From the sequence record DRR378314_598: a stretch of DNA of 37,031 nt, one strand, 5' to 3'. The notes below the pieces were generated by a model, which was given only the letters and a program-made list of their open reading frames with translations, was not told the origin of the DNA and ran no database searches. The position numbers and the translations under genes were made by a program. Positions 1,233 through 27,816 of the stretch are shown here, one piece after another; positions within the stretch are counted from its first letter, which is position 1; each line of letters opens with the position of its first letter.

Positions 1233-1988
1233 GTGGATGATAACAAAGTAATAATTGGTGGTTCATTAGTTGAATCGCTTAAAGGAAACTATCAGCTGTC
1301 GTTGCGGCAAATTTTTGAGCAGGCATTTAACATTACCAAATCAAATTTGACCCCGCTAATTGGTGGTTTTTTGGTTTTATTGGCTACTGCATTTCTGATG
1401 GTACAGGCTCTGATGAATGTCTTCTCAGTTGAAGATATTATGGGGTCAATAAAAATTCAATATATCTCCAATATCCTTGGCTCCGTTTTAATAGCTCCAT
1501 TGTTGGGCGGACTGATATTAATGGGTATAAAGCATAGTGTCGGCATTAAAACCAAAGTGGGAGATGTCTTTAATGGTTTTAATGTAATGATGCCCTTAAT
1601 TGCTGTAGCGCTTGTAAGTACAACTTTAAAACTAGTAGCGGGTCAATTACTTGGTTTGATTCACCCGAATTTTATGATAATTGCTCAGCTTTATGTTACC
1701 GCTATTTTAGTCTTAGCAATGCCGCTGGTGATCGAGCGAGGAGTTGGCCCGTTAAACGCCTTATACTATTCAATAAAAATTATTCATTTCAAGCTGCCTA
1801 AATTTATTTTGTTATTTTTGGTTATGTTCGGTTTACTGCTGTTGGCTTTTATTCCTCTTGGATTAGGTCTTATTTGGGTGTTACCGATGATTTGTAACCT
1901 TATTGGAGTGGTCTATAGAGAAGTCATTGGCGTAACAGTTATTGAGAAACCCAAAAAAGACAGTTCGTCTGAGAATATTTCGGCTTGA
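1233..1988 (+). CDS. Conserved multi-pass inner membrane protein
   Basis: About 5-6 hydrophobic segments. Start moved to the in-frame GTG at 1233 (GGGA upstream) because the ORF-track start overlaps rluE. Confidence 0.75.
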   Translation: MDDNKVIIGGSLVESLKGNYQLSLRQIFEQAFNITKSNLTPLIGGFLVLLATAFLMVQALMNVFSVEDIMGSIKIQYISNILGSVLIAPLLGGLILMGIKHSVGIKTKVGDVFNGFNVMMPLIAVALVSTTLKLVAGQLLGLIHPNFMIIAQLYVTAILVLAMPLVIERGVGPLNALYYSIKIIHFKLPKFILLFLVMFGLLLLAFIPLGLGLIWVLPMICNLIGVVYREVIGVTVIEKPKKDSSSENISA

Positions 1989-5700: not shown

Positions 5701-8075
5701 TTTCGATACAACCTTAGAGAGTTTCCTATTACCAGAAGAGAACTAAGCGACATACCAAGTGCTGCTGCCCAGGGAGCAATCATACCGATAGCAGCTACAG
5801 GTAATACAGAAACATTATACACCAATGCCCAAATGAAATTCTGTTTCATAATCTGGCGTGTTTTGAGAGCGCTTTCTATTACCACTTTAATTTGATTCAG
5901 GGATTCAGACATCAACACAACATCGGCTGCCGTTTGCGCTAAATCAGATGCTTGAGAAAACGTCATTGAAAGGTCGGCTTTTGCCAGAACCGGGCTGTCA
6001 TTAATGCCGTCGCCAACCATCCAGACCGTATGCCCAGCTTCTTGTTGAGCTGTGACAAAAGCAAGCTTTTCTGCTGGTTTCAAGGCACTGTGATATTCAG
6101 GGATACCCAGTTCATGAGCCAGAGACTGAACTCTTGATTCGCTATCTCCGCTTAGAATAATGGGTTGATAACCGTTGTTTTTTAACCAGTTAATGGTTTC
6201 AGCGGCATCTTCTCTTATTTGATCTTCCACTCTGAACTCGGCCAGGATGCGTTCTTTACTGGCAATGACGACCTGGTGCTTGTTAGTCGCTTTAAACTCC
6301 GGATGCCATTGCTGGATGTAAGTTTCACTACCTGCGCGATATGATTGACCCTTGAATTCTCCTTGCAGGCCAAAACCCATCTCGTTAGTGACATCCTGAA
6401 ATGACGCCGGGGTGTCCGACAGCTGGCTTAAAGGAACCGAAAGAGGGTGTTCGGAAAAAAGCTCCAGTCCGCTAATCAGTTCATCAACGGTGTTAGAGTC
6501 TATGTAGTCATTTCGCTCAACCAGCCGAAACTTTCCCTCCGTTAGGGTACCGGTTTTATCCAGACACACTTTATTCAGTTGTTTAACGGACTCAAGGACA
6601 TCCGAGCCTTTTAATAAAATACCATCTCTGTTTAGTCGATGAATGATGCCAGTTAATGCTGTCGGTGCCGCGAGAGACAAAGCGCAAGGGCAGGTGGCAA
6701 CTAAAACAGCCAAAGTAACCCACAGGGCGTGATCTGGCTGGATCCACCACCAGCTAAAATAGGTAATAACTGCAACGGTTAAAATTGCAGCAATGAAATA
6801 GCCCGCTAGTTTATCGATAACTTGCTGTGCCTTGGGTTTAACCGCTAAAGCAGAATCCTGCATTGCGATAATGCCGGCCAAAACTGTTTGCTGAGCAGTT
6901 GCTGTTACTTTTATCCGTATTGGAGAGTGTTGATTAATACTGCCGGCAATAACCGCGTCTCCAAGTTTTTTTGATCTGGGCAGGCTTTCTCCGGTCAACA
7001 AGCTTTCATCAACCTGAGCTTGTTTATTCAGTAATTCACCGTCTGCAGGAATAGTCTCACCAGCTTTCACACGAATAATGTCACCGGTTTCCAGCAATTT
7101 AATAGCAACGGATTCATAGCCCTCGGGAGTTTCACGGTTAGCCAGCTTAGGCAGTAAGGTCAGACGGTTAGTGGCAAATTTCAATGCTCGTTCTTTTGCC
7201 AGTAACTCCAAAAAACGGCCCGTCAACAAGAAAAAAGTAAACATGGATATGGATTCGAAATAAACCTCCCCCGTATTGGTTATTGTCGCGTACACACTGG
7301 CACTGTAGGCGCCTAATAAGGCGATACTGACGGGAGTGTCCATGTTCAAACGCGATGCCTGTAAAGCTCTTAAGGCACCGGCGTAAAAAGGTTGTGCGCT
7401 GTAAAGAATAACAGGGGTCGCGAAAACCAGACTGACGCTCCAGAGAAAGCGTTGTAAGTCAGGTGATAAGTCGCTGACAGCGCCGAAATACAGCCCAAAG
7501 GCAATCATCATAACCTGCATAGTAGCAATGCCCGCTACGCCTAATCGACGGATATAACTCTTTCGCTGCCTTGCATATTGTTGCTCGGCTTCATTGGGCT
7601 GGAATGGCAGAGCCTTGTATCCAATATTGGCTAAAACTCTTAAAATATCGCTTAGTTTTAATTGAGCAGGAGACCAGCTAACCTGAACCCGGCGGCTGGT
7701 AACATTAACCACCGCTTTTTGTATACCTTTAAGGCGCAATAGCTCACGTTCAATTAGCCAGCCACAGGCGCCACAGGTAATGTTCTCTACGGTGAGAGTT
7801 GCCAGCTCGGTGTCGGCTCCCTCATGCCTTACAAACTCTTTTTGTAAGGCAGGGTTGTCGTAGAGATTTAAATCATTTAATTCTTCAGGAAGAACGGGAG
7901 AGTCCTGTAATTGAGATGTGTCTCTGTGTTCGTAATAAGCGTGCAGGTTGTGCTGAATGATGGTTTGTGCCACAGCTTGACATCCAGCACAACAGACCGG
8001 TTTCTCAGAACCTTTGTACTCAACAGCAAGATTAACCCCTTTGGGAACCGGCTGCAGGCAGTGAAAACATTCCAT
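5697..8075 (-). CDS. ccoI: Copper-translocating P1B ATPase CcoI/FixI
   Basis: CFHC...CCAGC N-terminus, CGAC HMA motif, TGES, CPC, DKTGTLT, GDGIND. Confidence 0.94.
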   Translation of the reverse strand: MECFHCLQPVPKGVNLAVEYKGSEKPVCCAGCQAVAQTIIQHNLHAYYEHRDTSQLQDSPVLPEELNDLNLYDNPALQKEFVRHEGADTELATLTVENITCGACGWLIERELLRLKGIQKAVVNVTSRRVQVSWSPAQLKLSDILRVLANIGYKALPFQPNEAEQQYARQRKSYIRRLGVAGIATMQVMMIAFGLYFGAVSDLSPDLQRFLWSVSLVFATPVILYSAQPFYAGALRALQASRLNMDTPVSIALLGAYSASVYATITNTGEVYFESISMFTFFLLTGRFLELLAKERALKFATNRLTLLPKLANRETPEGYESVAIKLLETGDIIRVKAGETIPADGELLNKQAQVDESLLTGESLPRSKKLGDAVIAGSINQHSPIRIKVTATAQQTVLAGIIAMQDSALAVKPKAQQVIDKLAGYFIAAILTVAVITYFSWWWIQPDHALWVTLAVLVATCPCALSLAAPTALTGIIHRLNRDGILLKGSDVLESVKQLNKVCLDKTGTLTEGKFRLVERNDYIDSNTVDELISGLELFSEHPLSVPLSQLSDTPASFQDVTNEMGFGLQGEFKGQSYRAGSETYIQQWHPEFKATNKHQVVIASKERILAEFRVEDQIREDAAETINWLKNNGYQPIILSGDSESRVQSLAHELGIPEYHSALKPAEKLAFVTAQQEAGHTVWMVGDGINDSPVLAKADLSMTFSQASDLAQTAADVVLMSESLNQIKVVIESALKTRQIMKQNFIWALVYNVSVLPVAAIGMIAPWAAALGMSLSSLLVIGNSLRLYRK

Positions 8076-19843: not shown

Positions 19844-20176
19844 TTATGATTTAACATAATATACATTATACGCAATCATCATCACTGGCGTTATCATCAT
19901 CACTAAACTGGCCGCTGTGCTCGTCAATAACTTTACCCATGCTTCCCGTTCTTTTTTCGATTTTGACTTGTCCATATTCGATTTGATTAGAACAATCTCC
20001 GGACGAATCTCTAATGCTTCAGCTAACGTCACTAACTGTTCGTTTGTGAATCGCAATTCACCTTTGCGAACCCTAGAAACATTGGGCTGTAGCATTCCTA
20101 AGAACGCAGCAGTCTCGCTGACATTCTTTCCAGTTTTCTCCATGAAGTCTTTCAATAACTCTTGGCTGTAACTCAT
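19844..20176 (-). CDS. Phage XRE-type HTH repressor; 3' end encoded by dif
   Basis: NVSETAAFLGMLQPNVSRVRKG HTH; AGGAGG RBS; divergent from the replication operon; hydrophobic C-terminus. Confidence 0.85.
   Translation of the reverse strand: MSYSQELLKDFMEKTGKNVSETAAFLGMLQPNVSRVRKGELRFTNEQLVTLAEALEIRPEIVLIKSNMDKSKSKKEREAWVKLLTSTAASLVMMITPVMMIAYNVYYVKS
19849..19876 (-). other. dif: Chromosomal dif site (XerCD), intact copy = left prophage junction
   Basis: Minus strand ATTGCGTATAA-TGTATA-TTATGTTAAAT; 25/28 identical to E. coli dif, with perfect spacer and XerD arm. Confidence 0.95.
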
Positions 20177-20302
20177 CGCTTATTCCTCCTAGTGATCAAT
20201 ATCTAATTTTATATACAAAAGTCATATTTGCAAATTATTCAAAACTGTATATAAATATATAATGTTTTATATGGACAAATTGTCAAAATAAGGACTAAGG
20301 CA

Positions 20303-20521
20303 ATGGCTAACGTATCAGACACGTTTTTAGACAAAGCGATTCACGGTTTTGGTAACCGTCCACGCCTAACTATGGTGGGACTTGAGGAAGATTTAGGTTA
20401 TCACCGCAAAATGATCGCAAAGCTCAATGCTGCAGTCCCGTTAACCCGACAGCAGCGCGAACGCCTATCACATCATCACGCTCAAGTTCAGCGCATCCAG
20501 CAACTTATCAGTTTGCGGTGA
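20303..20521 (+). CDS. Phage hypothetical protein (first gene of the rightward operon)
   Basis: AAGG RBS; 4 nt before rep. Confidence 0.7.
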   Translation: MANVSDTFLDKAIHGFGNRPRLTMVGLEEDLGYHRKMIAKLNAAVPLTRQQRERLSHHHAQVQRIQQLISLR

Positions 20522-20525
20522 AATT

Positions 20526-21587
20526 ATGATTGATTGGCTCACTCTGGTTATCCCAATGAAGCACCCAGTAATCAACTCAGGCCATTTTATCGAGCTTACC
20601 CCTGACGGTGACCTAGTTCGCGAATTTGCGAAGGTACGCACCGTTAAGGGGTCTTTTTCTTCATCTATCAGTCTGAAAACAAATATCGTGAGTCCTTGCC
20701 AGAAATATGGTGAACAGCTTTATATCTCCGGCAACCCTTCAAAATTTCTACAGGGTCATAACTGTTTCGGCTCAAATGACATTAAATCGCTGGCACTTGG
20801 AATGGTCGAGCAGGCACTCGCCCTGCTCGATTTTGAACTCAACGACTTTTCACGCCAGACCATTCTTAACGGCAATTACACCGTTAAACGCATTGATATT
20901 ACGGAAATGTTCGAGTTACCGAACGCCGCTGACGTAGATGCTTGGATATACGCCATGAGCAACAGCAGTAAATCCCGCCACGGATTACCCGAACTGACCA
21001 ACAGAACTTTGTATTTCGGCAAGAATTCACGCCGCTACGCAACAAAAATGTATTCAAAATTCCGTGAATTAACCACGGGCAAAAAAGAACACGCTTTACC
21101 TCAAGAACTGCTGAATTCCGGCATTCTCGACTGGACGATTAATAAAGTCCGTATAGAGCACGTTTTACGTGCGCAAGAACTCAAGAAAATAGCTCAAGAC
21201 CGTTGCAACAAAGACTTTTTACAAGGCAAAGACCTAACCCCGACCGTCATAGAGCAATTGTTTAACGAATATGTGGGGCGCATTGATATGTCAGGACAAA
21301 TCACCGCAACAGACGAAAAATTACAGCAATTACCAAGTGGCGTTTATGGAACCTATCAACTCTGGAAACAAGGCTTAGACATTCGTTCGGTAGTCTCCAG
21401 AGCAACAATGTTCCGCCACCGTAAAACCATCAAAGATACTCTGAATATCGACATTTTCTTACCGCCGAAACAAGCGAAAACAAACGTTATTCCGCTGTTG
21501 CGGCCTTTAGAAGCAAAACCAGCCCAAGTTCCGGCTGAGTTACTTACTTACCAATACGACGGAGAAAAACAGTATGCAACAGGTTAG
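20526..21587 (+). CDS. Phage/plasmid rolling-circle replication initiator, gene II/X (Cri) family
   Basis: MIDWL start, GSFSSSI, ISGNPSKFLQGHNCFGS, RIDIT, TLYFGKNSRR, KMYSK. Confidence 0.92.
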   Translation: MIDWLTLVIPMKHPVINSGHFIELTPDGDLVREFAKVRTVKGSFSSSISLKTNIVSPCQKYGEQLYISGNPSKFLQGHNCFGSNDIKSLALGMVEQALALLDFELNDFSRQTILNGNYTVKRIDITEMFELPNAADVDAWIYAMSNSSKSRHGLPELTNRTLYFGKNSRRYATKMYSKFRELTTGKKEHALPQELLNSGILDWTINKVRIEHVLRAQELKKIAQDRCNKDFLQGKDLTPTVIEQLFNEYVGRIDMSGQITATDEKLQQLPSGVYGTYQLWKQGLDIRSVVSRATMFRHRKTIKDTLNIDIFLPPKQAKTNVIPLLRPLEAKPAQVPAELLTYQYDGEKQYATG

Positions 21588-21933
21588 AAATCACGGCTTA
21601 TCACTGAAAGGTGTCTGGAAAGGTATCTTGGAAAATCGCCGCACCAACAACGACGGTCAAGCTTATGTTCAGCATTTCGGTGGCATAGAAGTACCCAAAA
21701 TGAACGGCTTTCCTGGGGAAACCGAGGTTATTCGCGTTCAGGTTCCTAAAGACCTCGTTTCTCAGGGAATCATGGGTAAAACCTCGTCACTGATTGATAA
21801 ACAGGTCGAGTGCTTTATCTGGGTACGTGCATACCCTACCCGCGCAGGTGCTGGCTACGGCTATTACCTAGAGAACAATATCGACTGTGTTCAGCTATTG
21901 AACGGTCAGTCTGAGTTGAAAAAGGCAAGCTGA
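21574..21933 (+). CDS. Probable ssDNA-binding protein (gV / RstB position)
   Basis: 119 aa, beta-rich with aromatic and basic residues; overlaps the rep 3' end; assignment is positional. Confidence 0.65.
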   Translation: MQQVRNHGLSLKGVWKGILENRRTNNDGQAYVQHFGGIEVPKMNGFPGETEVIRVQVPKDLVSQGIMGKTSSLIDKQVECFIWVRAYPTRAGAGYGYYLENNIDCVQLLNGQSELKKAS

Positions 21934-21936
21934 TTT

Positions 21937-22212
21937 ATGCCTCAATCTCAGTCCATAGTTAGCATCGAAAAAATTAAGTCTATTACCAATTTGGAAGACT
22001 TGAAAGTTACTGTCGAGTTCTCTGGAACAGAGCTTTGTGCCTTGCATGAAGCTCTAGACACATATCTTAAGTCAAATCCGATTACAGTTTCCGACGTTGA
22101 GGATCGTGTTCTATCCATTGAGCGGCTTATCAATAGCTTATTAATTGATATCGATGCTTATTCAAATATTCCTGATTCGCACGCTAAATACTGGCTATTT
22201 GGGGTGCGCTAA
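21937..22212 (+). CDS. Phage hypothetical protein
   Basis: 91-aa ORF tightly packed between ssb and the coat genes. Confidence 0.6.
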   Translation: MPQSQSIVSIEKIKSITNLEDLKVTVEFSGTELCALHEALDTYLKSNPITVSDVEDRVLSIERLINSLLIDIDAYSNIPDSHAKYWLFGVR

Positions 22213-22443
22213 ATGTCTTTTCTCTCAGGGCTATTCATATTCGCAATTGTCGCTGTGAGTTTCGTTCGGGTCTGCCCTACGGACGTTGTAAACGGGTCAT
22301 GTCCTGAACCAATGGTTTGGCGGGAAGTTGCTTCAACATTGCCGTTAACGTTTGAGCAATTTCTCACCATTACCCCCTATTTACTAGGGGTTCTTTTCAT
22401 AGCATGGGGCTTTAAAAAGCTCATTAAAATGCTGAATCTTTAA
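22213..22443 (+). CDS. Probable minor coat protein (pVII/pIX-like)
   Basis: Cys pair, C-terminal TM and basic tail; directly before the major coat gene. Confidence 0.6.
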   Translation: MSFLSGLFIFAIVAVSFVRVCPTDVVNGSCPEPMVWREVASTLPLTFEQFLTITPYLLGVLFIAWGFKKLIKMLNL

Positions 22444-22459
22444 ATATTTGAGGTGATTT

Positions 22460-22681
22460 ATGATTGCAAAATTTAAGGCTTGGGCACTAACAGCAATGCT
22501 TGTTGTTATGTCTTTATTAGTAGCCGTTCCGGCTATGGCTCAGGACGACCCTGTGGCTCAGGCTGCTCAGGGTTTCCAATCCACTTTTTCAGGTCATGCG
22601 ACAACTATTGGTGTAGCTCTTTTGAGTGCGGCATTCGTTGCCCTTGTCTGGAAATGGGTTAAGGGAATGGCTTTCTCATAA
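22460..22681 (+). CDS. Major coat protein (pVIII) precursor
   Basis: Signal peptide ending PAMA; mature ~46 aa with acidic N-terminus (QDD), TM and basic C-terminus (WKWVK); GAGGTG RBS. Confidence 0.88.
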   Translation: MIAKFKAWALTAMLVVMSLLVAVPAMAQDDPVAQAAQGFQSTFSGHATTIGVALLSAAFVALVWKWVKGMAFS

Positions 22682-22690
22682 GGGGGCTTT

Positions 22691-22759
22691 ATGTTCACGG
22701 CCGACGATGTATTTATCATTGTCGGCCTTATGAGTCTATACAACCTTTTCGATTCATAA
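22691..22759 (+). CDS. Putative 22-aa hydrophobic micro-protein
   Basis: AGGGGG then ATG: MFTADDVFIIVGLMSLYNLFDS*; fills the pVIII-pIII gap. Confidence 0.4.
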   Translation: MFTADDVFIIVGLMSLYNLFDS

Positions 22760-22769
22760 GGTCTACACC

Positions 22770-24320
22770 ATGTTTAACAAATCCCTCTGGCTTATCCTCC
22801 TGACGATACTGGGGGGATTTTTCTTTTATTCTCCGGCTGCATCTGCGGATATTTTTATTTGTGCATCTTCGATGTATTCAGGTTGTTCTGCTAATCAAAA
22901 ACAAGTTACCTTCGCCGGTTCAACCGCAGCAATGAGTTGTGAAATTTTCGGGGGAACTCAGACAGGTTACGCCCCAAATACTCGTAGAACCCAATGCTCC
23001 GATGGTTTTGCTCCGAGCTGGTATTATACTAGTTCTGCTGCCTCACCAGATAATCCACCGCTTCCTTTTGACGAATCAGGCGAGTGTGTTCCCGACACTG
23101 AGTTTGGAATGTGTCAGCCAGAAGAAGATTGGGATAACGACGGAACTCCTAATTTTCAAGATGAAGATTCCCCCGCCTATGACCCTGATTATTGTTCTTC
23201 CAATCCGTTGTCTCAATATGCTTGTGAAGATGATGATTCCGGCGACGACGATGGTGGTGATGATGGTTCCGGTGGTGGAGGTAGCGACGGTGGTGGTGAC
23301 TCTGGCGGTGGCGGTTTACCGTCAAGCTGTGAAGGTAGCCCGACGTTCTCAGAATCTTGCTGTCGGGAGCATGCAGAAGCTCAGTGCATTGATTCAGGTG
23401 GTTTAGCTGATTGGGGGCTTGTTTCTATCGGCTCCCCAACTTGTAATTATACTTGCAACAACGATGGTGATAACGGTTCCGACCCCGGCGACGATGGAGG
23501 TTCAGGCGACGACGGTTCCGGTGACCAGACAGACAATTCAGACGTTGTTAACGCCATTAATCAGCTTAAAGATTCGAATATAACTGAGTTCGGCCAATTC
23601 AAAGAGGCTTTAGATTCTCTCGTTGCTCAGACCAGCCAGCAAACCGATGATTTAGTTGCCGCTCAGCAAAATAACACTGATACGTTAAGTAACGATTTAT
23701 CGACTCTCAATGAAACAAATCAGACAGGTTTTGAGGCTCTTTCTTCCCAGTTAGAAGCCATTAAAAACAATACTGCTCAGGACTCTCCTACAAATCCTTT
23801 TCTTGCTGATATAGCTGAAAACACCAGTAGAACTAATGAGCTTTTAGAAATAGCTAATGACCAGTATTTTTCACAGAACGGCGCGCTCATGGGTATTGAA
23901 AGTGAAATCATGGCTAACGGCGATACTTTAGGAGATATTTCAGGCCAGTTAGGTGATATATCAGATTCTTTGAATCCAGACGGCCCTGTTCCTTCCCCTG
24001 ATTCTTTTGGTGATGGTGATTTTGGTGGTGCTGCTGCCGGAAGTGGTATCGGTGACGTCATTACAGACCGTTTCGGTGAGTTGCCGGATGGTTTACCCAA
24101 TGAGGTTATAGACCTCAGCAAGGAAGCAGATAAATTTAAACCCATTCTTCGCGATACACCCTCTGACTGCCCTGCTAACCCTAAGATTGATTTAGGTGTC
24201 GCTGAATTCACCCTTAATTGGAATCCTATTTGCGACTTGTTCGGCATTCTTAAAATTTTTCTTATCGCGTCTGCAACGATTGCGGTTCCGTTCATTATTC
24301 TTGGTACAGGTAAAAACTAA
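22770..24320 (+). CDS. Attachment protein pIII-like
   Basis: Signal peptide (ASA), Cys-rich domains, Gly/Asp/Ser linkers, C-terminal CP...ICD plus TM anchor. Confidence 0.85.
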   Translation: MFNKSLWLILLTILGGFFFYSPAASADIFICASSMYSGCSANQKQVTFAGSTAAMSCEIFGGTQTGYAPNTRRTQCSDGFAPSWYYTSSAASPDNPPLPFDESGECVPDTEFGMCQPEEDWDNDGTPNFQDEDSPAYDPDYCSSNPLSQYACEDDDSGDDDGGDDGSGGGGSDGGGDSGGGGLPSSCEGSPTFSESCCREHAEAQCIDSGGLADWGLVSIGSPTCNYTCNNDGDNGSDPGDDGGSGDDGSGDQTDNSDVVNAINQLKDSNITEFGQFKEALDSLVAQTSQQTDDLVAAQQNNTDTLSNDLSTLNETNQTGFEALSSQLEAIKNNTAQDSPTNPFLADIAENTSRTNELLEIANDQYFSQNGALMGIESEIMANGDTLGDISGQLGDISDSLNPDGPVPSPDSFGDGDFGGAAAGSGIGDVITDRFGELPDGLPNEVIDLSKEADKFKPILRDTPSDCPANPKIDLGVAEFTLNWNPICDLFGILKIFLIASATIAVPFIILGTGKN

Positions 24321-24329
24321 GGGGGATTT

Positions 24330-24695
24330 ATGCATTGGTTAATAGCTGCTTTAGGTAGTCTTTTAACTTGGCTTGCCAGAGGTTTAATTACCAGCTTCGG
24401 TAAGCTAATGACAAACTTTTGGGCGGGTTTATTATTTTTTCTTCCCGGCATTGTTTACAAAGCTCTAGTTGGTTTAGGCGTTGGTACTGCAACTTACCTT
24501 CTCGGTAGTTTCAGTCTCGATATTCTTTACAGTCAAGTTGAAGCACAGTTAACGGGCTTGCCAGCTAACATGCTCGCATTCGTAAAAATGTCAGGCATTC
24601 CCGAAGGCTTATCTATTCTTTTTGGGGCTCTCTCCGCTCGCATTACTTATTCCGCTTTAGGTGTTACGAAAAAGACTATTACTTGGAACGCATAG
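24330..24695 (+). CDS. Minor coat protein pVI-like (DUF2523-like)
   Basis: Hydrophobic 121 aa with LGVG and GIPEGLSILFGA motifs; located between pIII and pI. Confidence 0.8.
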   Translation: MHWLIAALGSLLTWLARGLITSFGKLMTNFWAGLLFFLPGIVYKALVGLGVGTATYLLGSFSLDILYSQVEAQLTGLPANMLAFVKMSGIPEGLSILFGALSARITYSALGVTKKTITWNA

Positions 24696-24764
24696 AGGAA
24701 CGACAGACAGACGAGCGAGTAGCCGGCTGGCTGGCGTTCTTCGTTTTAGGGAGGATAAAATACA

Positions 24765-26114
24765 ATGCTATTTCTCAGAACGGGTTTACCTGGTGCATCT
24801 AAAACACTGAATACACTTCGTGAAATTTGTCACGATAAATCCACGGCCAATAGAGATATTTACTACAACAACATTAAGCTCTTAATGCTTGATTTTGACG
24901 TTGTGTCGAGCTTTCAGGGCTTCTTTTACGGTGAGTTTTATCCGACATTAGATAAAAAACATAAGCCCAAATACGAAAAGATATTATTGAAAATTCACGA
25001 TCAAGATGAATTAGCCAAGCCGGAAGATTTTCCGCATTTACGTACTCAATATGATGCATGGTTAGAAACGGGGGGACATATTAGTCTCTGGCTTTACTGG
25101 GTTAAACGTACTCACCCGAAAGCCAAACTCTCGGCTCTTGAAGACTATTTGAGTATTGTTGAATCCCCTACCGTTGATGACTTAAAGCAGTTTAAATTGC
25201 ACTGGAACGATTTTCCCGACCCGACAACATGGCCGGATTTACCTCGTCACTCCATTTTCGTTATTGATGAATGCCAAAGGTGGTTTCCTGTTCGCCCTGT
25301 TGGTGCAAAAGTTCCTCGTCATGTCTCTGAATTCGAAACTCACCGACACAAAGGTTTCGATGCTCATTTGGTCACTCAGGACGCGAAGCTTCTCGATTCA
25401 CATGTTCGTCGCCTTGTCGGGCGTCATATTCATTATTCTAATCCGTTGGCCTCCAAAAAAATCTCCCGAATGGAGCATGATAAAGTTTTTGACCCTTCGG
25501 ATTATCACCAACGTAAAAACGCGACTAAGGCTATTAAATCCCGTGACAGCAAGTTTTATGGGCTTTATTGGTCGGCTGATGTTCACACGCACAAAGCCAG
25601 AGTTCCTAAGTTTCTCTTTTTGCTGATCCCAGTTCTCTTTGTGCCGTTCTATTTCTATTTTCACTTTTTTGCTTCAACCGATGAAGTAGCATCTAAACCT
25701 GTCGTTGTTGACCAACAGTTAAACGATACTGAAGCCTTTATGAATTTTCCGGACACGCCACCAGACGACCCTGAAGAATCCCAAATTAAACATTTCGATG
25801 AGCTGATGAATGACGATACACCGCTTTCTTCATACTGTGACCGTGTAACCTATGCCGGAAAAGAAGTCATATCCAGACGCGGCCAAGTCACTACGAACTA
25901 CTATCTGCAATGTGAACGTGATGGGGCTGACTCTGAAACTTCAACGAAATCTAATGACGAAGAAAAGGACTCCAAATCGAGCCCAGGCATAAAAAGTGAT
26001 TCCTATCTTTTGGGGTACCGGTTCCTGACCGCGCTTGGTTTTGAGTTAGAAGTTGTTCAGGGAATGCCCTTACTTCGTTATAAGCAGAATCTTTATGCCT
26101 TTCCCCCGATTTAA
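24765..26114 (+). CDS. Zot / pI morphogenesis ATPase
   Basis: Walker A TGLPGASKT, Walker B FVIDECQ, HRHKGFDAHLVTQ, single TM, acidic C-terminal domain. Confidence 0.93.
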   Translation: MLFLRTGLPGASKTLNTLREICHDKSTANRDIYYNNIKLLMLDFDVVSSFQGFFYGEFYPTLDKKHKPKYEKILLKIHDQDELAKPEDFPHLRTQYDAWLETGGHISLWLYWVKRTHPKAKLSALEDYLSIVESPTVDDLKQFKLHWNDFPDPTTWPDLPRHSIFVIDECQRWFPVRPVGAKVPRHVSEFETHRHKGFDAHLVTQDAKLLDSHVRRLVGRHIHYSNPLASKKISRMEHDKVFDPSDYHQRKNATKAIKSRDSKFYGLYWSADVHTHKARVPKFLFLLIPVLFVPFYFYFHFFASTDEVASKPVVVDQQLNDTEAFMNFPDTPPDDPEESQIKHFDELMNDDTPLSSYCDRVTYAGKEVISRRGQVTTNYYLQCERDGADSETSTKSNDEEKDSKSSPGIKSDSYLLGYRFLTALGFELEVVQGMPLLRYKQNLYAFPPI

Positions 26115-26135
26115 TAAAAAATCGTCACTTAAAAA

Positions 26136-26292
26136 CTGTCAACGCTCGGCGCAGGGTCGAAACTCGTTTCGACCTGAGCAAGCGTAACGATAGATGGCAC
26201 TGAAAAATGAAAGTACACACCGAAGCAGAAAAAAGAAGAACCCAACGGGCAAAGGTGCAAGTAGTACTGCACTTTAGTCTCAAATTGAGACT
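26136..26292. other. Phage intergenic region with several hairpins (candidate origin / packaging signal)
   Basis: GGTCGAAAC-tc-GTTTCGACC (26155-26174); GTGCA-N8-TGCAC within 26251-26275; AGTCTCA-aat-TGAGACT (26276-26292). Confidence 0.55.
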
Positions 26293-26374
26293 CACAAATT
26301 AGTAATTGCCTTTACATTTCTGCTATAACTGATTGACCTGAAACGGATTTTTAGTATTTAGGGGATGTTGTACC

Positions 26375-26773
26375 GTGGCAACTGAATTTCAGACGGATTT
26401 TGTGCACGTTTTCGCCTTTAACTATAAGGCTGCTGCTGACCATTTTGGCGTAACTCTACGAACGATTTACCGCTGGTTTGACGGTAACCCGCCGTCCTAT
26501 ATAAAACGCTACATGAATGTCATGGCTCGCGGTTGGCTTCCTCATTACGAACCCTTTAGTAACTGGCGAATTGATGGTACCGATATTTATTTCCCGACTG
26601 GCAAAGTATCGGCCTTTGATGTGGAATTCATTGAGCAGTACAAATGGAGTCAGAGAACATTGACAGAACGTTTTAAGAATCGCCAACTGAACCAGAAAGA
26701 AATGCTTGAATCGGTCGAAAGGATTTTAGAGGAATCCGAGCGATTGAGATTGAAGCTCGGTAAGGTTATTTAA
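26375..26773 (+). CDS. HTH + DUF3653-like phage protein (XafT-like candidate)
   Basis: AAADHFGVTLRTIYRW HTH followed by GWLP...FSNWRIDGTDIYFPTG and a coiled-coil tail; GTG start with GGGG upstream. Confidence 0.65.
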   Translation: MATEFQTDFVHVFAFNYKAAADHFGVTLRTIYRWFDGNPPSYIKRYMNVMARGWLPHYEPFSNWRIDGTDIYFPTGKVSAFDVEFIEQYKWSQRTLTERFKNRQLNQKEMLESVERILEESERLRLKLGKVI

Positions 26774-27443
26774 ACTCATTATCTAGAGATTTTATTTCTT
26801 TTTCTAATGCTCTTTCTATTTTATTTTTTAGAGCATCGGTTTTTCTTCGTAAATGTGCATTTTCACTCTTTAAGCTATCTTTATCTATTTCATTTTTACT
26901 ATTTATTTTTTCCTCAACGTATAAGTGTATTTTTGCAAGATGGATCTTTAGTTTGTGGCAATGTGAATCGATTACCTCCATCTTGTAATCCATTATTTCA
27001 CCTTCGCTTTTTGTTACATCCCTTAGCCATTCATAAGTGTGAGTTTGAGTTTTAAACTCGGTAAGTTGCGCGATTAATTCTTGCTGCTGTTCTTCATAAG
27101 CACGAAAATCTGTCAGATTGGATTGTTTTAGCATTACATTTGTCATGCTATCAATACGCGCCAATATGTCTGTTAAGGTGAGCATCTGTATAGATAACTG
27201 AACCTGTGCTCTTTTCAGTTTTGCAATTTCATTGTATAGGTTGTTTCTTGTAGTTTTTTTTAGCCACTGTTTTTCGAAATCGATTACAGTCGTTAACGTT
27301 TTGGTAGTTATCAATAATGTTACTACTGTTGCAGCAACGCCAAGTATTGACACTAATTCAAAATATTCGATTGGCACTATCAAGTATATGACGCAAAGAG
27401 AAATAATTACTGTTGCGGGAAAGAGGAGAGCATTCTTATTCAT
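26766..27443 (-). CDS. Prophage accessory protein: two N-terminal TM helices plus helical/coiled-coil domain
   Basis: 225-aa ORF, visibly AT-rich, antisense to the phage core genes. Confidence 0.75.
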   Translation of the reverse strand: MNKNALLFPATVIISLCVIYLIVPIEYFELVSILGVAATVVTLLITTKTLTTVIDFEKQWLKKTTRNNLYNEIAKLKRAQVQLSIQMLTLTDILARIDSMTNVMLKQSNLTDFRAYEEQQQELIAQLTEFKTQTHTYEWLRDVTKSEGEIMDYKMEVIDSHCHKLKIHLAKIHLYVEEKINSKNEIDKDSLKSENAHLRRKTDALKNKIERALEKEIKSLDNEFK

Positions 27444-27538
27444 TATAATAATTCTCTAATTTTTTCTGTAACTTATCACACCTCGCCTCGAATTCCACTG
27501 CCTACCGCACTCATAACTTTCGTTTATGGTAAAGCCCA

Positions 27539-27566
27539 TTAAGTATAAATATACATTATACGCAAT
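27539..27566 (-). repeat. Right prophage junction: dif-like site with degenerate XerD arm
   Basis: Minus strand ATTGCGTATAA-TGTATA-TTTATACTTAA; 19 bp identical to the left dif. Confidence 0.92.
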
Positions 27567-27816
27567 TATATATTTAAGAGAAAATAGCCGTAAATTGAAG
27601 TCCTTACCACTAGCATCCCTTTAAGGTCGCGGATTACCGAAGTTCAGCTTTAAACTATGAAAACTCAATACCGAAATTGAAGCCAAATGGAAGTTTCTCT
27701 CCAGTGACAAAATGGCAAAGATCCCGCAGAGAATCGTTATTTCCCACAGCAAAACTCTCTCAATTCAGCATTTCTGTTATCATGTCGTTATTGCTAGTTA
27801 AGAGAAGAACAATTAA

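Follow-up and report, generated by a model that had tools for sequence, protein, structure and literature searches.

The window analyzed here, the whole stretch of 37,031 nucleotides from sequence record DRR378314_598, contains an inovirus prophage at the dif site of its host. The prophage occupies positions 19877-27566, that is, 7,690 bp between two 19-bp repeats, and the host genus is judged to be Idiomarina from the source name of a homologue. At the left end of the prophage, a repressor-like gene (19844-20176, minus strand) runs into dif and takes its last codons from it. The prophage isoform of its product has 110 residues. It consists of an XRE-type helix-turn-helix (HTH) domain (approximately residues 3-70), a DUF3693 juxtamembrane motif (67-94), and a C-terminal hydrophobic helix that extends to residues 106-109.

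The repressor-like gene and its att sites

The complete dif site at the left end of the prophage spans 28 bp (19849-19876). On the plus strand, the XerD arm lies at 19849-19859, the centre at 19860-19865, and the XerC arm at 19866-19876. Read on the minus strand from 19876 to 19849, the site is composed of the XerC arm ATTGCGTATAA, the centre TGTATA, and the XerD arm TTATGTTAAAT, and its bases also serve as codons 100-109 of the repressor gene. The last 11 codons, stop included, span 19844-19876, and the final four codons and the stop are host dif and its flank. The 110-residue form ends in IAYNVYYVKS*, and the open reading frame (ORF) in ...ITPVMMIAYNVYYVKS*. This ending had been described in the first-pass annotation, made by a model from the letters alone, and is borne out by the coordinates of the ORF and of dif.

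The right end of the prophage carries a hybrid att site (27539-27566), with the XerD-side arm at 27539-27549, the centre at 27550-27555, and the XerC arm at 27556-27566. The two ends share an exact 19-bp repeat (19858-19876 and 27548-27566). Read from 27566 to 27539, the right site has the same XerC arm and centre as dif, followed by a phage-derived degenerate arm, TTTATACTTAA, which matches the XerD arm of dif at 3/11 positions by eye. The same count gives 7/11 and 4/11 for the XerD-side arms of two relatives described below, L024 and L014. The attP reconstructed from both ends has a XerC arm and centre identical to those of dif and a degenerate XerD-side arm, as do TLC-type attP sites.

The nearest genome compared (G001) is free of the phage. 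It has a single dif site of identical sequence next to the same LysR-type gene, with flanks that are 98.3% (left) and 90.9% (right) identical to those of the window. No integrase or recombinase domain was found by Pfam in the 12 prophage ORFs scanned, in agreement with the earlier claim that the phage lacks an integrase. The dif-type ends, the phage-free dif in G001 and the lack of an integrase domain among these ORFs place the prophage with the integrative mobile elements exploiting Xer (IMEX). The G001 locus (L013) also contains about 1.1 kb that is absent from the window, on the XerC side of its dif (~1466-1493). Two small ORFs at ~486-1039 resemble, by eye, a ribbon-helix-helix antitoxin and a ParE/RelE-type toxin, and the extra DNA may be another insertion at dif.

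Joining the two repeats by script rebuilds the circle and yields an ORF of 136 residues, ...IAYNVY-LYLMGFTINESYECGRQWNSRRGVISYRKN*, with its stop at 27458-27456, which reproduces the frame reported in the first-pass annotation. The 30 C-terminal residues that form the extension are encoded on the minus strand at 27456-27548, 7.6 kb from the gene in the prophage. The other two frames beyond the joined att stop after 2 and 11 codons. A frame open for at least 29 codons has a probability of 0.14 in random sequence of local composition, and of 0.29 over any prophage position and frame. The open extension alone is unremarkable and not beyond chance. The overlap is lifted above chance because a natural circular relative reads across attP and the overlap recurs in the family, as described below.

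The DUF3693 motif (PF12472) scores 22.2 bits against a cut-off of 21, HTH_37 and HTH_26 are matched below their cut-offs, and the PHROGs match is phrog_638 (1.5e-15). The AlphaFold2 (AF2) model of the 110-residue form has a predicted local distance difference test (pLDDT) score of 90.7 and contains a five-helix XRE domain (residues 3-70) and one long helix (74-109) that runs through the att-coded residues. The circular form of L024 gives the same model with the long helix extended (74-120; pLDDT 84.6), the extension being predicted with lower confidence. Fold searches with the AF2 model returned generic XRE HTH matches only, the best at E 6e-3, and no match at E ≤0.001.

The 19-residue Kyte-Doolittle maximum is 1.83, at residue 83, in both the 110- and the 136-residue forms. 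The hydrophobic stretch, which had been described as extended in the circle, is indeed longer there, but merely longer, with an unchanged maximum. Membrane tethering that is simply present in one form and absent from the other was rejected for this reason. Any difference in tethering between the isoforms, as proposed earlier, probably does not come simply from the presence of the hydrophobic helix, which both forms keep.

A divergent control region (20177-20302) separates the repressor gene from the replication module. A promoter-like site for the repressor lies on its minus strand, with TTGACA starting at 20286 and CATTAT ending at 20259 (10/12 matches). The region holds five promoter-like sites, compared with 2.5 ± 1.4 in shuffles, which is suggestive at most. 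From the HTH fold and the position divergent from the replication module, we infer a role of the product in repression and immunity. A repressor variant of 80 residues (P0005), recorded on 15 contigs, matches with 86% identity for the first 70% before the frame is lost. This frameshifted or truncated allele has neither the hydrophobic helix nor the att overlap.

The inovirus core (20303-26114, plus strand) comprises orf72, pII, a G5P-like protein, small ORFs and a coat protein, and pIII-like, pVI-like and Zot/pI proteins. The pII replication protein (20526-21587) matches Phage_CRI (1.2e-48) and G2P_X_C. It is followed by a G5P-like single-stranded DNA (ssDNA)-binding protein (21574-21933; Putative_G5P), a coat protein (22460-22681), a pIII-like protein (22770-24320), a DUF2523 pVI-like protein (24330-24695), and a Zot/pI-type assembly ATPase (24765-26114; Zot, 1.4e-16), all on the plus strand. 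The pII initiator, the ssDNA-binding protein, the small coat proteins, the Zot/pI ATPase and a length of 7,690 bp, within the 5-10 kb expected of such phages, identify the element as an inovirus. The core is syntenic with that of L014. No phage record is close, and pII is 42.8% identical to that of phage I2-2. The pIII-like protein contains long Gly/Asp/Ser-rich low-complexity linkers, and its N-terminal part is the region most divergent between the window and L024 or contigs of the sequencing runs compared below, as expected of a receptor-binding protein.

It is most improbable that the overlap is meaningless here, with a protein that ends earlier or is not made, or with a prophage that is a decayed remnant. 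The core genes are all full length and have the same lengths as in L024 (pII 353 residues, Zot 449 residues). Four homologues with an overall identity of 78-85% share an unchanged C-terminal third of the repressor as far as the att-coded residues. In addition, the repressor ORF is likewise open in independent assemblies.

Close relatives and the circular coding state

A metagenome contig scan returned one locus, L024 (contig LFUF01004219.1, 7,138 bp). Its two ends abut inside pII, where 293 and 60 residues make up 353, as in the pII of the window, and the join is collinear with window pII. At the level of its sequence, L024 is a circularly permuted genome with an attP junction, either free or from a tandem array. 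The L024 repressor gene (1231-1596) encodes 121 residues and reads across attP, ATTGCGTATAA TGTATA TAATAATCAAT, so that the C-terminus is ...IAYNVY NNQSLSSRRASLKQA*.

The integrated counterpart comes from an Idiomarina isolate. This 110-residue protein (P0002) equals the L024 repressor at 104/106 residues and then ends in YVKL*. Public data thus contain both coding states of what is essentially one repressor. In the protein collection, the four close homologues of full length (78-100% identical) all have the prophage-type end IAYNVYYVK. The two isoforms claimed in the first-pass annotation stand as two coding states, 110 and 136 residues in the window and 110 and 121 residues in P0002 and L024, with the 136-residue state of the window being a reconstruction.

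No further relative came from several other searches. A megablast of the whole prophage against phage records gave no match, tblastn of a phage collection with the repressor gave none at E ≤1e-3, and neither an IMG/VR scan with the repressor nor a scan of representative-genome contigs with the repressor alignment returned a relative.

The repressors of the window and L024 are 86% identical, yet their tails, of 30 and 15 residues, are unrelated. The more distant L014 (genome G032, same genus) is 68% identical to the window in pII, 58% in Zot, and 43% in the repressor. It reads dif in a different frame. Its prophage form ends in ...NCVECILC*, and the reconstructed circle form adds 19 unrelated residues. 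The three tails are thus mutually unrelated.

Contigs of four sequencing runs (X1-X4) were aligned to the window, X1, which may be the source sample, giving the best cover at a depth of about 1-5. The X1 contigs showed no joint and no circle junction of the window phage; contigs cannot reveal rare forms. Positions 19967-20233 are uncovered by contigs in X2 and X3, and positions 27176-27442 in X2-X4. The stretch for the C-terminal extension (27456-27548) likewise lacks cover in the related phages of X2-X4. An X2 contig of 7,153 bp, at a depth of 75, represents a related phage that aligns to window positions 20302-26772. On this contig, 26772 jumps to 27548, o225 is missing, and the repressor gene is without cover at a likeness of at least 80%. 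These patterns hint that related phages carry other immunity or cargo regions, which seem to be swapped among phages that are alike elsewhere.

Beyond the core, the far att end of the prophage carries o132 (26375-26773, plus strand), an HTH protein gene that matches phrog_23834 (3e-20). The gene or a homologue of it occupies this position in the window, L024, L014, L015, L016, L018, and L020. Five of seven o132 homologues match NF040522 (VC1465/XafT family) weakly, with a best E of 0.0012 and 16.6 bits where the cut-off is 70, and o132 gave no match to PF12375/DUF3653 even at E up to 10. The o132 protein is 35% identical to a gene at the P15 position of corticovirus PG21. By position and weak profile matches, o132 is a candidate Xer activation factor of the XafT/P15-like type.

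The slot between attP and the XafT-like gene is variable in content. In the window it is occupied by o225 (26766-27443, minus strand), a cargo gene of 225 codons whose product has, by eye, a hydrophobic N-terminus and a charged, repetitive remainder. L024 has at this place an unrelated membrane-protein gene (1657-1905, plus strand) encoding 82 residues with two hydrophobic stretches, in the same layout after the repressor, and L014 has nothing. Neither o225 nor the 82-residue protein of L024 has a match in Pfam, PHROGs, PADLOC, or NCBIfam.

This layout bears on a reading in which the main effect of integration is transcriptional, the cargo gene being co-transcribed with the repressor in the circle and cut off by integration. 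In the circle, the start of o225 (27443) lies 12 nt past the stop of the 136-residue frame on the same strand, and L024 repeats the layout with a different gene. In the prophage, o225 lies at the opposite end from the repressor, behind host DNA. No terminator-like site was found at 27444-27575, and a promoter-like site directed towards o225 (27594-27565, minus strand; TTTACG, 18 nt, TATAAT; 10/12) spans the host flank and the att edge. However, the number of promoter-like sites in the region is at chance level (5 found, 4.6 expected), L014 is without a cargo gene, and the related phages of X2-X4 are without the o225 region. A mainly transcriptional effect is quite improbable on balance.

Relatives and known systems

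In six more distant relatives of the same bacterial family (L015-L020), the gene also adjoins a dif-like site but stops a few bases before it, and there is therefore no isoform change. The expectation that related phages keep the frame open across attP holds for L024, with its 121 residues, and fails for these six. In L016, L018, and L020, the att site is inverted relative to the repressor (stops at ~13812, 13699, and 14064 in oriented coordinates), and the prophage ends share the XerD arm only (12-14 bp), a different attP design with the same gene module. The left att of L017 (G070) is preceded, at ~6393-6460, by sequence resembling the 3' end of another repressor copy, which suggests a tandem array or what is left of a second element at dif.

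Among 1.84 billion representative proteins searched, 34 matched the family at E ≤0.001. A class-wide search matched 87/400 genomes, mostly on the HTH alone, and 10 of the 30 loci it returned were inspected. Four of these ten (L031, L037, L040, and L049) have no dif-like site by the stop. In L028 (G374) and L029 (G540), the HTH and DUF3693-like region (profile positions 1-87) starts frames of about 600 residues or longer that run off the locus, and these are possibly fused forms. The DUF3693 domain was not mentioned in the literature searched, nor did a separate search find a paper joining 'integration-dependent' with filamentous phage, dif, and XerD.

The best-described counterpart of the repressor gene is ORF13 of RSS0, a Ralstonia inovirus that uses dif and XerCD. 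The two proteins are 28% identical over 88 residues (BLASTP, pairwise E 1e-9), and hhalign gives a probability of 98.9% for homology. Like the window repressor, ORF13 contains an HTH, a DUF3693-like motif and a hydrophobic helix, followed by a dif-like core, tttatcttatgtaaaata, at the 3' end of the ORF. The core is followed by a very basic 26-residue tail, and the gene is also reverse-oriented beside the replication module. The available passages of the RSS0 report place attP within ORF13, state that integration shortens the product from 156 to 130 residues, and, citing unpublished work, say that the forms may differ in function (PMC3816273). There, the regulator role rests on the immunity of the lysogen (PMC3816273). 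The attP placement is repeated in part of a later text (PMC4471427). RSS0 differs from the window in reading att in another frame, with an integrated form ending in ...FILC* rather than ...YYVKS*, in having a betaproteobacterial host, and in giving no Pfam DUF3693 match for ORF13 at E ≤0.01. The window family documents a natural pair of circular and integrated forms from sequence, whereas the RSS0 statement cites work unpublished or in preparation.

Cp8 of Cf1c, a dif-integrating inovirus of Xanthomonas, matches the family profile with an hhalign probability of 97.8% and has the attP core inside the ORF, about 26 codons before the stop. In contrast to the window, its att orientation is opposite relative to the ORF, and the circular tail holds a second hydrophobic stretch. 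Published passages on XacF1 place attP within ORF12, a putative regulator 99% identical to Cp8, and note that integration may affect ORF12 (PMC4076744). Cp8 alone was compared here, and ORF12 is linked through this published identity. The relationship of RSS0 and Cp8 to the window is distant, since tblastn of the phage collection gave nothing at E ≤1e-3. The att/ORF overlap is seen here as an inherited trait of one regulator family with an HTH, a DUF3693 motif and a membrane helix, to which RSS0 ORF13 and Cf1c Cp8 belong. An attP inside a regulator has already been published as a hypothesis for RSS0 and XacF1, and the window adds another member.

The first-pass annotation had also drawn a comparison with mycobacteriophage BPs. 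In BPs, attP lies in the repressor gene, and gp33 changes from 136 residues in the viral form to 103 in the prophage, according to the abstract of PMC4557955. The viral form is the longer one in the window as well (136 and 110 residues) and in L024 and P0002 (121 and 110 residues). However, BPs has its own tyrosine integrase and an ssrA-like tag, whereas the window has host Xer sites, no integrase domain and no ssrA-like end. The window repressor is unrelated to gp33 apart from the HTH, and has a hydrophobic C-terminal helix. The window resembles BPs in geometry only.

A further comparison concerns the compact module of CTX-I/TLC-type elements, which consists of RstR/P16, a dif-like attP, and XafT/P15, as described in part of PMC12715192. 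TLC-type attP sites have a degenerate XerD arm, and TLC-type elements need XafT, as stated in passages of PMC6744903. The terminal genes of the window prophage are likewise a repressor gene and an HTH protein gene at the XafT position. Its cargo lies between attP and o132, and in the passages of PMC12715192 cargo lies between zot and xafT. The passages seen of PMC12715192 and PMC6744903 mention no overlap of an ORF with attP. The arrangement of the window fits a predicted lysogeny module of repressor, attP and XafT/P15, although the o132 match is weak and below every curated threshold.

Proposed packing of attP or a possible integration-dependent switch

The reading we prefer, with a probability of about 0.55, attributes the overlap mainly to close packing of attP against the immunity gene, the swap of tails being tolerated and any regulatory effect secondary. 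The phage would have integrated at dif in the Idiomarina chromosome by means of the host recombinases XerC and XerD, probably with help from its XafT-like protein o132. The last residues of the C-terminal hydrophobic helix, I-A-Y-N-V-Y, would come from the XerC arm and centre, and recombination would swap everything past Tyr106. The circle would thereby give a 30-residue, net basic tail (136 residues), and the prophage Y-V-K-S and a stop from host dif and its flank (110 residues). Repressor, attP, optional cargo and XafT-like gene would together form a compact lysogeny module. The tail swap would be tolerated, as the crossover lies downstream of the HTH, the DUF3693 motif and the hydrophobic helix alike. 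We infer both the membrane anchoring and the neutrality of the swap.

The alternative to packing is an integration-dependent switch, which is possible but falls short of probable. The basic tail of the circular form would hinder insertion of the protein with the N-terminus inside and the C-terminus outside, or mark it for turnover, and the end of two to four residues would give a stable, anchored repressor. Only once Xer recombination has taken place would immunity be locked in. By the positive-inside rule, a long basic tail behind a helix with a basic N-side should disfavour tail-first insertion.

Several observations weigh against packing as the main explanation, and most of them speak for a switch. 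First, the overlap recurs in the family. Half of the 34 representatives (17/34) end in or read through dif peptides in two frames, as counted from peptide motifs and not from DNA (..YYVK.., IA[YH]NVY.., ..ILC*, and QCIF..), and six more show the motif of the third frame (..IM..). At the DNA level, the overlap is found in the window, L024, L014, L027, L030, L035, RSS0, and Cf1c, in three frames and both orientations. L027 and L030 have ..ILC* inside the site, L035 has an inverted site, and an overlap in L026 is probable. The overlap is too recurrent to dismiss. Second, the XerC-side arm of the L014 phage differs from host dif at the precise base that would otherwise give an in-frame TAA. This change, which removes a stop, hints at selection for read-through. 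Third, precedents exist. As BPs illustrates, a switch can be built around a truncation of this kind (PMC4557955), and the authors of the RSS0 report proposed, in the part available, a functional difference between the 156- and 130-residue forms (PMC3816273).

A fourth point comes from the tails themselves. Nine circular-type tails were compared (window, L024, L014, P0009, P0012, P0008, P0021, RSS0, and Cf1c; P0010 was left out as a near-duplicate of P0008). All are longer than the prophage endings, and eight of the nine have a net charge of +3 or more, the remaining one being zero. Lysine and arginine make up 35/184 tail residues (19%), compared with 11.4% in random translation of local composition. 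This excess corresponds to a rough binomial p of 0.0017, for sequences that are not independent. The relatives that stop before att carry acidic or neutral tails, which are constitutive in these phages.

These points are offset in part by others that argue against a switch. The tail sequences are not conserved, even between the 86%-identical repressors, and six att-adjoining relatives do without an isoform change. Basic residues already outnumber acidic ones about 2:1 when AT-rich DNA is translated at random, and open frames of 15-30 codons arise by chance with a probability of 0.14-0.47. The AF2 model merely extends the helix in the circular form. The consensus of ssrA-like tags is an Ala-Ala type terminus. 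By inspection, none of the window, L024, and L014 tails has an ssrA-like end (the three ends are SYRKN, SLKQA, and HVLNS), other degrons being possible, and a BPs-type ssrA tag was rejected on this basis.

If the tail needs only generic length and positive charge, its sequence would drift while the overlap persists. Still, it is somewhat unlikely that the topology or stability of a membrane-anchored repressor is switched by Xer recombination at dif, which would give integration-dependent immunity with no integrase, based on the site where the host resolves chromosome dimers. The preferred reading remains that attP is packed closely against the immunity gene.

Little is understood of how filamentous prophages that lack an integrase link their integration to immunity, and an attP inside a regulator gene has been noted so far in single phages of two crop pathogens. 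The locus adds a pair of coding states that occur in nature, one circular and one integrated, in a harmless marine host, together with evidence for a family-wide trait. It also sets a long basic tail against a short end encoded by dif, a contrast open to testing. Should the swap have no function, the locus would be an example of inovirus genome compaction. If the swap is functional, integration-dependent immunity would extend from mycobacteriophages to Xer-exploiting elements, and a switch would explain why inoviruses of gamma- and betaproteobacteria have retained the overlap, in three frames and two orientations, but not the sequence of the tail.

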